Below, in pieces: positions 8,026 through 63,861 of a stretch of DNA of 64,000 nt. Origin of the DNA: Candidatus Marinacidobacterium sp. (GTDB lineage: Bacteria; Acidobacteriota; Vicinamibacteria; Marinacidobacterales; Marinacidobacteraceae); NCBI GenBank assembly GCA_965204755.1, contig OZ242011.1, positions 608,001 through 672,000 on the forward strand, given 5' to 3'. The notes beneath the pieces are model-generated. The model was not told the origin of the DNA. It made no database searches and was given only the letters and a program-made list of their open reading frames with translations. Every line of letters starts with the position of its first letter. The stretch's first letter is position 1. Made by a program: the position numbers and the translations under genes.

Positions 8026-8254
8026 CTAACAGCCCGTGGAAAAAGCGCCCCGCCGTCCACTCCTCGACGCGAGGGCGCCAAGTCGGCAGTCGGTTTCGTG
8101 GCGGGGCGCTCTTCCCACGGGCCGGCGGCGCGAATCGCTGCGCGATTCCCCCCGCCATCTATCGCGGGGAGGGGGCCACCCCCTCCCCGCACCCCTCCCC
8201 GGTCGGCGCTTCGCGCCGACAGGCGCTCCCCGGACTTTTTCCTCGGTCTGCTAA
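8026..8254. mobile_element. MITE-like element copy 1 (221 bp, ~16-bp TIRs, CTAA direct repeats)
   Basis: CTAA-cagcccgtggaaaaag...ctttttcctcggtctg-CTAA. Near-identical to 59188-59416, with multiple internal hairpins. Confidence 0.85.
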
Positions 8255-29619: not shown

Positions 29620-29837
29620 CAGCCCGCGGAGAAAGCCCCGTGCCCTCCCCTTCTCGAACGGAGGACCCGAGAGTGCCCCGTAGGGTCTCTCAGCGGGCGC
29701 GTTCTCCACGGGCAGGCGGCGCGAATCGCTGCGCGGTCCCCCCACCGTCCTTGGCGGGGGAGGGAACCCCCTCCCCATGCACCTCGGCGGCGCTTCGCGC
29801 CGACCGGAGCTCTCGATCGGACCTTTTCCGCGGGCCG
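29620..29837. mobile_element. MITE-like element copy 3 (diverged, 218 bp)
   Basis: cagcccgcggagaaag...ccttttccgcgggccg termini; shares gcgcgaatcgctgcgcg and ggcgcttcgcgccgac with the other copies; sits exactly between two convergent TGA stops. Confidence 0.7.
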
Positions 29838-34740: not shown

Positions 34741-34899
34741 CGGACCCGTGACGGCTCCCGGCGCGCCCGCCGCGCCGGCCTCCGGCCGGCGGAGCGAATC
34801 GATGCGCGATTCCGCCCGCCGTCTATCGCGGGGAGGGGGGCGCCCCGTTCCCGGTCGGCGCCTCGCGCCGACGAGCGCGTCCCGGACTCACACGGGCTG
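34741..34899. mobile_element. MITE-like element copy 4 (3' half recognisable)
   Basis: gcgaatcgatgcgcgattcc...tctatcgcggggagggggg...ccggtcggcgcctcgcgccgac...cccggact...cacgggctg. Confidence 0.65.
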
Positions 34900-57666: not shown

Positions 57667-58395
57667 TCAGCCCCGGTCGGCGGCCTCGGCGCCGGTCTCG
57701 ATCCAGTTCGAGATCAGGCCGGCGAGCGAGCCGACCAGGCCGAGCGCCAAGGTCTTGAGCCACACCGCGATCAGGCTTCCGCCGGCGGTGACCGCGTGGT
57801 GGTCGCCGAAGTCCGTCGGCTCGGCGCCGAAGAAGGTCGCCACCGACCAGAGCAGCGCGTCTTCGGCGGTCAGGATGTTCGCTTCCGGGTGACGGCTCTC
57901 CAGCCCCAGGATCAGGAAACTGGCGAGGATCAACGAGATCACGATGAGCGAAGACACGGTGGCGGCGACCGTCTTGGCGCGGCCCACCCGGAACAGCGCG
58001 GCGAACCCGTGGACGGCGCGGGTCGCGGAGCGGAGCACGCGGAGGATCAGGACCAGCCGGATCGCGCGAAATCCCCGGAGCGGCTCCACGATCGGAACAG
58101 ACGCGAGGAAGTCCGACCAACCCCAGTGCCACCAGCGCTTCCGGTTCGGCGACTTCCAGAGGTCCCAGGCCGCCTTGCTGAAGAAGAGGACGCAGATCAC
58201 CCAGTCGATGTACTCGGCGAGTTCCCGGAACTCCGTGCTCGCCGAAGGCCGCAGCGTCAGGGCGTAGAGGGCCACCGAGCCGAGCGCGAGGACCGCGTAC
58301 AGCGACTCGACGACGACCTGCGAGCCGGTCGGCGCCGGCTCCCCGGAGATCGAACCGTCGTTCGGGCGGGGACCGGAGCCCGGAGGCCGGCTCAC
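57667..58395 (-). CDS. Voltage-gated ion-channel-like protein with an atypical pore loop
   Basis: S4-like LRGFRAIRLVLILRVLR, ANI.TAEDALLWSVAT pore helix, FGDHHAVT; GTGA overlap with the upstream gene. Confidence 0.75.
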   Translation of the reverse strand: MSRPPGSGPRPNDGSISGEPAPTGSQVVVESLYAVLALGSVALYALTLRPSASTEFRELAEYIDWVICVLFFSKAAWDLWKSPNRKRWWHWGWSDFLASVPIVEPLRGFRAIRLVLILRVLRSATRAVHGFAALFRVGRAKTVAATVSSLIVISLILASFLILGLESRHPEANILTAEDALLWSVATFFGAEPTDFGDHHAVTAGGSLIAVWLKTLALGLVGSLAGLISNWIETGAEAADRG

Positions 58396-59774
58396 CGGCT
58401 GCGCTCCCGGAACTCGGCCGCCGACCAGATCGGGATACCCAGCCGACGGGCGGCGCGGGCCTTCCCGGAGACGGACGCCGCATCGGCCGCCACCAGCAGG
58501 TCGCATCCCCGACGCGTCACGCCGGCGGTCACCCGGAATCCCCGCCCCACCGCCAACGCCTCGAGTCGGTCGCGCTCCCAAGGTATCCCGCCGAGGACGA
58601 CCCGTCCGGTGAAACACACCCGACTCCCCGCCCGGAGCACGGTGATTTCCGGCAGCCGGGTGATGCTCGGCCTCTCGGCGTCCGGGATCCCCAGTTGCCG
58701 GGCCAGGTTCTCGATCACTTCCCGTTCGCGCGGGGTGATGACCCCGTCGCGTTTCGCGGCGTCGACGACGGCGTCGAAGTACTCCCGATGCGCCCGCTGC
58801 CGCACTTCTTCCGGAATACCGCATTCTTCGGCGAGCCGCCGCATCTCGTCCCGCTCTTCGTCGTCCAGGACGCCGTCGTCGAGCACATGGTCGAGGGCGT
58901 CCAGGTACAGGCTCACCGCCTCGTCGCAGTGGGGATAGTGGGCGCGGGACACGACGCGCGGCATCGCCGGCGCCTCGGGGTCGGCCAGGTCGCGGCGCAG
59001 CGTGCGCTTCGTCGGGCGTCGGTCGATGTAACCGATACGGACCGGCTCGCATCGGTCGTCCGGCCGGTCGAGGCCCAGGCGCGCCAGCAGCCCGGCGGTC
59101 GCCCGGGCGTCCGCGAGCGCGCGATGGGCGCAGTCGAGCGGGACGCCGTGGTCGTCGCAGGCCGCCGTCAGCCGCTGTCCGGTCGCGCTAACAGCCCGTG
59201 GAAAGAGCGCCCCGCCGTCCACTCCTCGACGCGAGGGCGCCAAGTCCGCGTTCCGCTTCGCGGCGGGGCGCTCTTCCCACGGGCCGGCGGCGCGAATCGC
59301 TGCGCGATTCCCCCCGCCATCTATCGCGGGGAGGGGGCCACCCCCTCCCCGCACCCCTCCCCGGTCGGCGCTTCGCGCCGACGGGGGCTCCCCGGACTTT
59401 CTCCACGGGCCGCTAAGGGTGCAGATCCCCGCCCCGGGATCCAGCCGAACGCCGCAGCGGTCGAATTCCCGTTGCAGGAAGCGCCGGTCGAACGGCAGGT
59501 TGTGCGCCACGAGGACTCGACCGTGCAGCCTCCGGGCGAAGTCTCCGACGATCTCCTCGAAGGCGGGAGCGAGTTCCAGCATGGACGGGGTGATGCCGTG
59601 GATGGAGGAATGGCCGACATCCCGACCCGGCTGCACCAGGGTGTCGTATTCGTCCACGATCTCCCCGGTTTCCGGATGGAGGCGCACGGCGGCGACATCC
59701 ACCACGCGATCGCTCCGGCGGAACCCGGTGGTCTCCACATCCACGACGACGAGCGGGGGCTGCTCCCGCGGCAT
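58392..59774 (-). CDS. DEDDh (DnaQ-like) exonuclease + helical domain + BRCT, carrying a 75-aa MITE-derived insert
   Basis: VDVETTG, AHNLPFD, HRALADA; BRCT RVCFTG...SGKARAARRLGIPI. Confidence 0.85.
   Translation of the reverse strand: MPREQPPLVVVDVETTGFRRSDRVVDVAAVRLHPETGEIVDEYDTLVQPGRDVGHSSIHGITPSMLELAPAFEEIVGDFARRLHGRVLVAHNLPFDRRFLQREFDRCGVRLDPGAGICTLSGPWRKSGEPPSARSADRGGVRGGGGPLPAIDGGGNRAAIRAAGPWEERPAAKRNADLAPSRRGVDGGALFPRAVSATGQRLTAACDDHGVPLDCAHRALADARATAGLLARLGLDRPDDRCEPVRIGYIDRRPTKRTLRRDLADPEAPAMPRVVSRAHYPHCDEAVSLYLDALDHVLDDGVLDDEERDEMRRLAEECGIPEEVRQRAHREYFDAVVDAAKRDGVITPREREVIENLARQLGIPDAERPSITRLPEITVLRAGSRVCFTGRVVLGGIPWERDRLEALAVGRGFRVTAGVTRRGCDLLVAADAASVSGKARAARRLGIPIWSAAEFRERSR
59188..59416. 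mobile_element. MITE-like element copy 2, in-frame intragenic insertion
   Basis: CTAA-cagcccgtggaaag...tttctccacgggccg-CTAA; the direct repeats are 225 bp apart. Confidence 0.88.
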
Positions 59775-59814
59775 CCCGGCCCCCTTCCGGATGACTTTCG
59801 AGCCGTCCCCCGGC

Positions 59815-61914
<2,100 letters not shown>

Positions 61915-63402: not shown

Positions 63403-63753
63403 ATGCAGGATGTCCTGATCACCGGGCCGCGCAAGCGGCAGCCGAAGATCCTGGCCTATGTGGACTCGGGCAAGTGCTTCGGGCGCGGCTGCGAGATGTG
63501 CATCGCAGTGTGCCCGGTGCAGGACTGCATCACGCTGGTTCCCGACCCGGAACCGCGCTCCGCGGGGCAGGTCTGCGAAGTGAATGTGGAAACCTGCATC
63601 GGCTGCCAACTGTGCGCCAAGTTCTGTCCGCCGGACTACGACGCGGTGCACATGTTCCCCCACGACGAGGGGATCCGGCTGGCCGAAGAGCGCGAGCGCT
63701 CCTACGAGTACCGGCAGTACAAGAAAAAGCCGGGCGAAGCGCTCGCGCGTTAG
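63403..63753 (+). CDS. 2x[4Fe-4S] ferredoxin
   Basis: CFGRGCEMCIAVCP and CIGCQLCAKFCP; TGcTACAAT extended -10 at 63384-63392. Confidence 0.85.
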   Translation: MQDVLITGPRKRQPKILAYVDSGKCFGRGCEMCIAVCPVQDCITLVPDPEPRSAGQVCEVNVETCIGCQLCAKFCPPDYDAVHMFPHDEGIRLAEERERSYEYRQYKKKPGEALAR

Positions 63754-63861
63754 CAGGCGGCGGGAAGGGCGCCCCGCCCTCCGCTCCTCGACCACCGGGT
63801 ACCAAGTCGCCGGTCGGCGCTTCGCGCCGGCGAGCGCTCCCCGGATCTTCCCTGCGGGCTG
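63754..63861. mobile_element. MITE-like element copy 5 (internally deleted, ~108 bp)
   Basis: Starts right after the ferredoxin TAG: gcgccccgccctccgctcctcgac...caagtc joined to ccggtcggcgcttcgcgccg...ctccccgga...cgggctg. Confidence 0.65.

Follow-up and report, generated by a model that had tools for sequence, protein, structure and literature searches.

A miniature inverted-repeat element inserted in frame within a predicted DnaQ-family exonuclease gene of a sponge-associated bacterium

Introduction

[quoted passage not shown] In the same passages of the review, Rickettsia palindromic elements (RPEs) stand out by their frequency, as nearly half of the 44 copies in Rickettsia conorii lie in open reading frames (ORFs). 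Here we describe a MITE located inside an exonuclease gene in a 64,000-nucleotide stretch (hereafter the window) of Candidatus Marinacidobacterium sp. (assembly GCA_965204755.1, contig OZ242011.1). The window corresponds to positions 608001-672000 of the source genome, a single contig of 3.98 Mb with 71.7% GC. The sequencing runs that contain this stretch are sponge and marine metagenomes, and the named relatives carrying homologues of the host protein are Acidimicrobiia metagenome-assembled genomes.

As portrayed in these sources, intragenic ERIC elements, the Anabaena MITEs, Coxiella QMITE1/2 and pneumococcal BOX resemble the repeat described here: they are small and non-autonomous, carry terminal inverted repeats (TIRs), duplicate their target and fold strongly as RNA, and they are mostly intergenic with an occasional in-frame insertion or C-terminal extension. 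Our repeat differs from them in belonging to another sequence family and another lineage (sponge-associated, 72% GC), and the present case differs in that a catalytic domain is split and that both filled and empty alleles are found in natural populations. With RPEs it shares a palindromic, stop-free repeat inserted in frame at a position that may, to judge from structural models, be compatible with the host fold. Unlike RPEs, the MITE family shows clear TIRs and duplicates its target, its open frames give no sign of exceeding chance, and only one of its 42 full-length copies is genic, against the share given for R. conorii in the review passages. The case fits a known kind, the in-frame MITE fusion, and lacks the high genic share that defines RPEs. 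An earlier reading of the window from its letters (the original prediction) had proposed an RPE-like, protein-modifying repeat family, and we relate our results to it below.

Results

The host gene (58392..59774, minus strand) is a single ORF of 460 aa without any stop through the MITE, which occupies 59192..59412 (plus strand) and consists of 221 bp with 77% GC, imperfect TIRs and four GC-rich hairpins. It is flanked by CTAA, the duplicated target site (TTAG in the direction of the gene), to its left at 59188..59191 and to its right at 59413..59416 (both given on the plus strand), where the empty allele has a single CTAA. Read in the direction of the gene, the two junctions are ACC CTT AGC before the element and GTT AGC GCG after it. 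The sequence and the ORF list confirmed the original prediction that the element and the 4-bp CTAA together add 225 bp, equivalent to 75 codons without a stop. Its placement of the insert between the ExoII and ExoIII motifs, with the catalytic motifs intact, was also correct: the inserted residues are S121-S195, between D96 of ExoII and H217 and D222 of ExoIII, and the five catalytic residues are present in conserved columns.

The empty site was found in both protein and DNA data. Among 5.8 billion proteins searched, homologues P0002-P0005 have 385 aa each and are 99, 98, 88 and 85% identical to the host protein. Exactly residues 121-195 are absent from 10/10 aligned homologues in an alignment of 11 sequences (A1); not all orthologues carry the segment, as the predicted insertion demanded, and this comparison gives an ancestral length of 385 aa (460 minus 75). 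The same-genus genome G001 matches residues 4-121 and then, contiguously, 197-456. Furthermore, we compared Logan contigs over 58400-59780 from four (X1, X3, X6 and X11, each of a different study) of the 20 runs that contain the stretch. In the contigs of X3, X6 and X11, which come from three studies, 59185 is joined to 59411, so that 225 bases are skipped with 3 ambiguous letters; this joint is the exact empty site, with a single CTAA and the reading TLSATG (GICTL-S-ATGQ), precisely the sequence that removal of the element had been expected to restore. A second empty allele was seen in X3, with six other letters at the site, no TTAG target and the reading TLRATG as in P0002; the two empty-site alleles of this run (window 59183-59415) have similar depth (176 and 226).

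The filled allele is represented by X1, the run that contains the stretch best, whose contigs (58400-59235 and 59381-59780) match the assembly at both junctions with no mismatches and enter the element from both unique flanks, reaching 44 and 32 bases into it. An empty-site joint was looked for in the X1 contigs and none was seen. X1 is likely, or at least possibly, the source sample of the assembly, and its junction support, although it agrees with the original prediction, is therefore not independent of the assembly. The gene-borne copy is 98.6% identical to the nearest copy in the genome, and on these sequence comparisons the insertion appears to be recent and specific to one strain. Compared with P0002-P0005, the filled allele also has three private changes, Q102R, T56S and E26D (window 59470, 59609 and 59697). 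The exonuclease domain holds all three, and the remaining 265-283 residues have none, a clustering with a chance probability of 0.03-0.07; two of the changes affect positions that hardly vary across the 11 A1 sequences.

Sequence comparison identifies the host protein as a DnaQ-family DEDDh 3'-5' exonuclease. The N-terminal part (residues 1-120; 59415..59774, minus strand) contains ExoI (D12, E14) and ExoII (H91-D96) in invariant columns, and the ExoIII motif HRALADA (H217-A223; 59106..59126, minus strand) lies 3' of the insert. In alignments of 11 and of 52 sequences E14, D96, H217 and D222 are invariant and D12 nearly so, and the filled 460-aa allele keeps all five DEDDh residues. Its match to Pfam RNase_T (2.2e-20, 74.3 bits against a cut-off of 24) is confined to residues 9-109 because the insert splits the domain, while the empty-site allele P0002 scores above the TIGR00573 dnaq cut-off (81.5 vs 71.5 bits). 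The nearest solved structures are the Thermotoga maritima PolC exonuclease domain (2p1j), Staphylococcus aureus DinG (8zef) and Escherichia coli epsilon, which the host domain resembles in sequence, in fold and in the catalytic D, E, D, H, D set. Relative to DnaQ and epsilon types the protein adds a TerB-like middle and a BRCT-like C-terminus, both weak Pfam matches under the cut-off, and here the 75-aa insert. Among the 24 other same-family genomes searched, only G001 yielded a full-length orthologue, and 3 of the 16 genomes searched from other families did so. Since the gene is rarely found in relatives, it is probably dispensable in this lineage, that is, accessory.

An AlphaFold2 model of the 460-aa protein, built on the 52-sequence alignment, has a mean predicted local distance difference test score (pLDDT) of 73.7. 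The stretch 123-192 scores under 50 (about 29) and lacks secondary structure, whereas the flanking residues 81-120 and 201-250 reach about 90. The original prediction had asked where in the fold the insert falls: the model loops it out as a low-confidence coil between two well-modelled halves, with the reservation that the underlying alignment is free of the insert. In Foldseek comparisons, epsilon, RNase T and DnaQ domains align across the insert. In addition, a HMMER alignment to S. aureus DinG puts the insertion immediately behind the ICTL strand, whose DinG counterpart is IDTL, and at this point DinG is longer by 8 residues. These models place the insert at a junction of the DnaQ fold that varies in length. 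They make it feasible that the two halves still come together as a single fold, and the 75 inserted residues probably form a disordered loop rich in Gly, Arg, Pro and Ala.

Our search of the genome with nhmmer, using a profile of full-length copies, recovered 92 non-overlapping loci of the same element, of which 42 are full length and 29 of these exactly 221 bp long. The copies have conserved ends, CAGCCCGTGGA...TCCACGGGCTG. In the gene-borne copy the TIRs (59189-59207 and 59397-59415) span 19 nt and are 79% complementary, and an inner inverted repeat pairs 59183-59217 with 59261-59295. A target duplication of 4 bp is the best supported length, being perfect in 5 of the 29 canonical copies, against 0-1 of 29 for lengths of 2, 3, 5, 6 and 7 bp, and the copies are flanked by CTAA, TTAG, CTGA and decayed versions of these (YTAR-like). 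The RNA of the element folds into four hairpins (-165.3 kcal/mol, z -8.75). The element has no transposase gene and its translated frames yield low-complexity peptides only. A terminator or promoter created by the insert was looked for within the element and none was found. An Rfam search of the element gave no family at the gathering score (best 26.1 vs 70 and 19.6 vs 43 bits), a result that lends nothing to the suggestion, also made in the original prediction, that the paired RNA might be excised or bypassed. Related DNA is present in 18 of the 24 other same-family genomes and was found in none of the 16 genomes that represent two other families of the order. By its size, TIRs, duplication, dispersed copies and filled and empty sites, the element is a MITE.

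The family is modular. This genome has copies reduced to the left hairpin (model positions 3-100), copies of the right half (about 100/128-227) and copies with an internal deletion, and in other genera (relatives G002-G024) the inner module, positions 76-193, is the form met most often. Head-to-tail tandem arrays were also observed, at genome positions 316624-317510 (L027-L029), 2849296-2849754 and 3747533-3747857; the tandem arrangement (four copies, a 222-bp period and a single base between abutted ends) is unlike the outcome expected of independent insertions with a 4-bp duplication.

To place the copies relative to genes, we used a codon-usage score trained on 673 long ORFs with high GC3 (GC content at third codon positions), for which coding windows average 0.61 and other frames -0.83, and counted a locus as intragenic if it is spanned by a frame that is free of stops and shows coding signal to either side of the MITE. 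Among the 42 full-length copies only the exonuclease copy is intragenic, both as the sequence stands and after in-silico excision, and no coding frame runs across any of the 50 partial loci. Four overlaps flagged by a crude gene map (genome 2027153, 2959627, 3747533-3747857 and 3761770) were rejected as internal insertions on their score profiles, being start miscalls, C-terminal run-on into MITEs or a non-coding stretch. In the gene at genome 3746588-3747877, the coding signal ends about 110 codons before the stop and the frame continues across two MITE copies, one partial and one full; the C-terminus may stem from MITE sequence, or else the gene call may be wrong. At 72% GC, this genome offers few YTAR targets: it has only 865-899 such tetramers in 3.98 Mb, of which 35% lie within called genes. 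Finding at most one genic copy among 42 has a binomial probability of 2.4e-7 (1.3e-6 with tandem arrays counted once). Genic copies are therefore depleted relative to their available sites, and genic insertions have mostly been purged despite keeping the frame.

The frame is preserved because 221 and 4 sum to 225, a multiple of three. Taken by itself the element contains a single stop, which leaves 5 of 6 frames open; together with the duplications, the exonuclease copy has 3 of 6 open, two more being closed only by the TAA/TAG of the duplication. Dinucleotide shuffles have a mean of 3.67 open frames, and the probability of five or more is 0.20 for these shuffles and 0.17 for random genomic 221-mers, so that the open frames are what composition gives by chance at 77% GC. 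The original prediction had noted that the same frame is open in an intergenic copy (8030..8250, plus strand, from the family search). This second full-length copy is real, has CTAA on both sides and has the frame open, which is to be expected because the copies are near-identical and GC-rich. Its further suggestion that the open frame points to an element able to land harmlessly in genes is not supported, either by these chance expectations or by the genome-wide count, in which the exonuclease copy is the sole intragenic one.

We also searched the 5.8 billion proteins for the 75-residue peptide, which represents one of the three open frames. Nine proteins of 253-805 aa matched, including the exonuclease, and three of the nine (the exonuclease, P0124 and P0128) look like internal insertions in real proteins. 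P0124 (359 aa) carries 73 of the 75 residues, ungapped and with 78% identity, between two conserved domains. Its family is conserved, has about 290 aa and no Pfam match, and the MITE peptide sits in the linker of P0124. The relatives P0129 and P0130, from metagenomes, contain shorter in-frame remnants, and the more distant orthologues P0131-P0137 have a different linker; this distribution suggests that the P0124 group represents an older insertion that was trimmed in frame. In P0128 about 33 residues of half an element are in frame between conserved blocks near the N-terminus, and P0140 (842 aa, 60% identical to P0128) does not have them. As P0124 and P0128 carry the peptide in frame, insertions of this family seem to recur in the lineage, to be rare and in one case to be long-lasting. 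The other matches were discarded. Four of them (P0121, P0123, P0125 and P0126) are junk frames, the start of the thioredoxin-reductase-like protein P0127 is probably miscalled, and in P0122 the peptide is near a scrambled C-terminus. Long frames containing the peptide in relatives (549 aa in G016, G017 and G019; 1167 aa in G007) were likewise set aside; inspection of two loci, L036 in G019 and L039 in G007, showed non-coding frames rich in Arg, Gly and Pro that lie next to real genes.

A duplication of 4 bp at YTAR is typical of IS5-family insertion sequences and of their MITEs, and our MITE resembles this group in its 4-bp duplication at CTAA, TTAG and CTGA-like sites. A search of the genome with the DDE_Tnp_1 profile revealed two insertion-sequence families whose ends differ from those of the MITE. 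One of them, of 1.96 kb and encoding a 592-aa DDE_Tnp_1 transposase, is present at genome 475207-476082 and 705031-705906 (L047 and L048). It also duplicates TTAG/CTAA, the same target type as the MITE, and its ends (CCGGAAGTTCCA) differ from those of the MITE (CAGCCCGTGGA). The DDE_Tnp_4 profile had no match in the genome. A genome scan for TIR pairs 300-5000 bp apart gave chance-like pairs with no shared ends, none of them enclosing a transposase. The ends of the MITE are unmatched among the insertion sequences of this genome.

Lastly, the window contains three further members of the family on the plus strand: a diverged full-length copy of 218 bp (29620..29837; genome 637620-637837), a partial copy covering model positions 92-226 (34780..34899; genome 642780-642899) and an internally deleted copy in which model positions 2-62 are joined to 175-226 (63750..63861; genome 671750-671861). 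Directly upstream of the exonuclease gene, on the same minus strand and after a gap of 40 bp, lies uvrB (59815..61914, from the ORF coordinates; NF003673 UvrB, 1025 bits against a cut-off of 743), and this arrangement makes a shared transcript likely.

Discussion

We consider it likely that a MITE transposed into a TTAG site of the exonuclease gene, that the frame was kept by arithmetic and left open by composition, and that the copy owes its survival to its youth and to its place in an accessory gene, at a junction of variable length. A non-autonomous MITE of a group widespread in this bacterial family would have inserted recently, in one strain, after a DDE-type transposase acting in trans made a staggered 4-bp cut. 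Each canonical insertion of 221 bp and 4 bp would add 225 bp and keep the downstream frame, and at 77% GC, where most frames of the element are free of stops, the gene would remain a single 460-aa ORF. If translated, the protein would carry a loop of 75 residues directly after the ICTL strand. The copy may persist since it is young, the fold would tolerate a change of length at this point, and the gene is missing from most relatives. The insertion is a by-product of transposition and not the purpose of the element.

Several observations weigh against this explanation. No transposase partner with the ends of the MITE was found in this genome, a perfect 4-bp duplication is seen in only 5 of 29 canonical copies, and the depletion test uses a home-made codon-usage gene caller instead of a curated annotation. 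The structural model speaks to feasibility and not to tolerance, because its alignment consists of insert-free sequences, and the 460-aa product is a predicted one. The private changes could mean, as a weak hint, that the exonuclease domain is already under relaxed constraint. Furthermore, two further real proteins contain the peptide in frame, and one of these insertions is old; some in-frame insertions in relatives have therefore been kept for long, which leaves room for use.

The strongest competitor is that the insertion killed the exonuclease domain, leaving a young pseudogene or a protein of which only the TerB-like and BRCT parts are kept. The splitting of the catalytic domain between ExoII and ExoIII, the restriction of the RNase_T match to residues 9-109, the concentration of the three private substitutions in this domain with two at nearly invariant sites, the failure to find the gene in 23 of 24 other same-family genomes and the purging of other genic copies would all be in keeping with such a loss. 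We nevertheless judge it rather unlikely, as the five DEDDh residues are intact, the gene has neither a frameshift nor a stop, the substitutions are few and conservative, the insertion point is length-variable and the halves still model as one DnaQ fold. That the family is instead an RPE-like selected repeat, shaped to insert harmlessly and giving the host protein a new property through its 75-aa peptide, seems improbable. Parts of the original prediction do stand here: the element is a MITE inserted in frame and without a stop, its unit is a multiple of three, of the four frames that a genic YTAR site could use three are open, and the peptide recurs in P0124, as remnants in P0129 and P0130, and as half an element in P0128 and not in P0140. 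The part that would make the family RPE-like does not: its genic share is one in 42 with a strong depletion, the open frames are within the expectation from composition, and a length that is a multiple of three has a one in three chance. In addition, the other long ORFs with the peptide are junk frames or have miscalled starts, only three of the nine peptide-bearing proteins among 5.8 billion resemble internal insertions, and it is their frequency that makes RPEs exceptional in the passages of the review that treat in-frame MITE fusions as ordinary (PMC10969869).

It is very hard to believe that the mature protein has 385 aa because the insert is lost at the RNA or protein stage by an intron-like, bypassing or intein-like route. 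The sole point in favour is the very stable RNA structure; set against it are the Rfam scores far under gathering (26 bits vs 70 and 20 vs 43), the 41 other full-length copies outside genes, the low complexity of the peptide, which has no fold in the model, and the remnants in P0129 and P0130, which are ordinary in-frame deletions of DNA. Least credible of all is an assembly artefact in which a repeat copy was misplaced in the gene. A multi-copy repeat, inside which short-read contigs break, is where such an error could arise, but the X1 contigs cross both junctions into the element and show no empty joint, with the caveat on their independence given above, and the perfect target duplication lies at a TTAG that the empty allele also has. 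A broader proposal would make the MITE family a recurrent source of in-frame, disordered Gly/Arg/Pro-rich segments, an RPE-like process in an unrelated phylum, with some segments kept over long times as in the P0124 group and with a functional and selected loop in the exonuclease; we see only a slim chance that this is so.

The case reveals no new mechanism. The MITE family is apparently undescribed: for repeats in sponge Acidimicrobiia, the titles and abstract openings of the first 10 of 206 papers contain nothing on it. It breaks up short-read assemblies of these sponge symbionts. The locus offers a natural example of a selfish repeat that lengthens a protein without destroying its ORF, with both alleles present in wild populations of one species-level lineage, and the pair of 385-aa and 460-aa alleles is suited to gauging how far the DnaQ fold tolerates an insertion.

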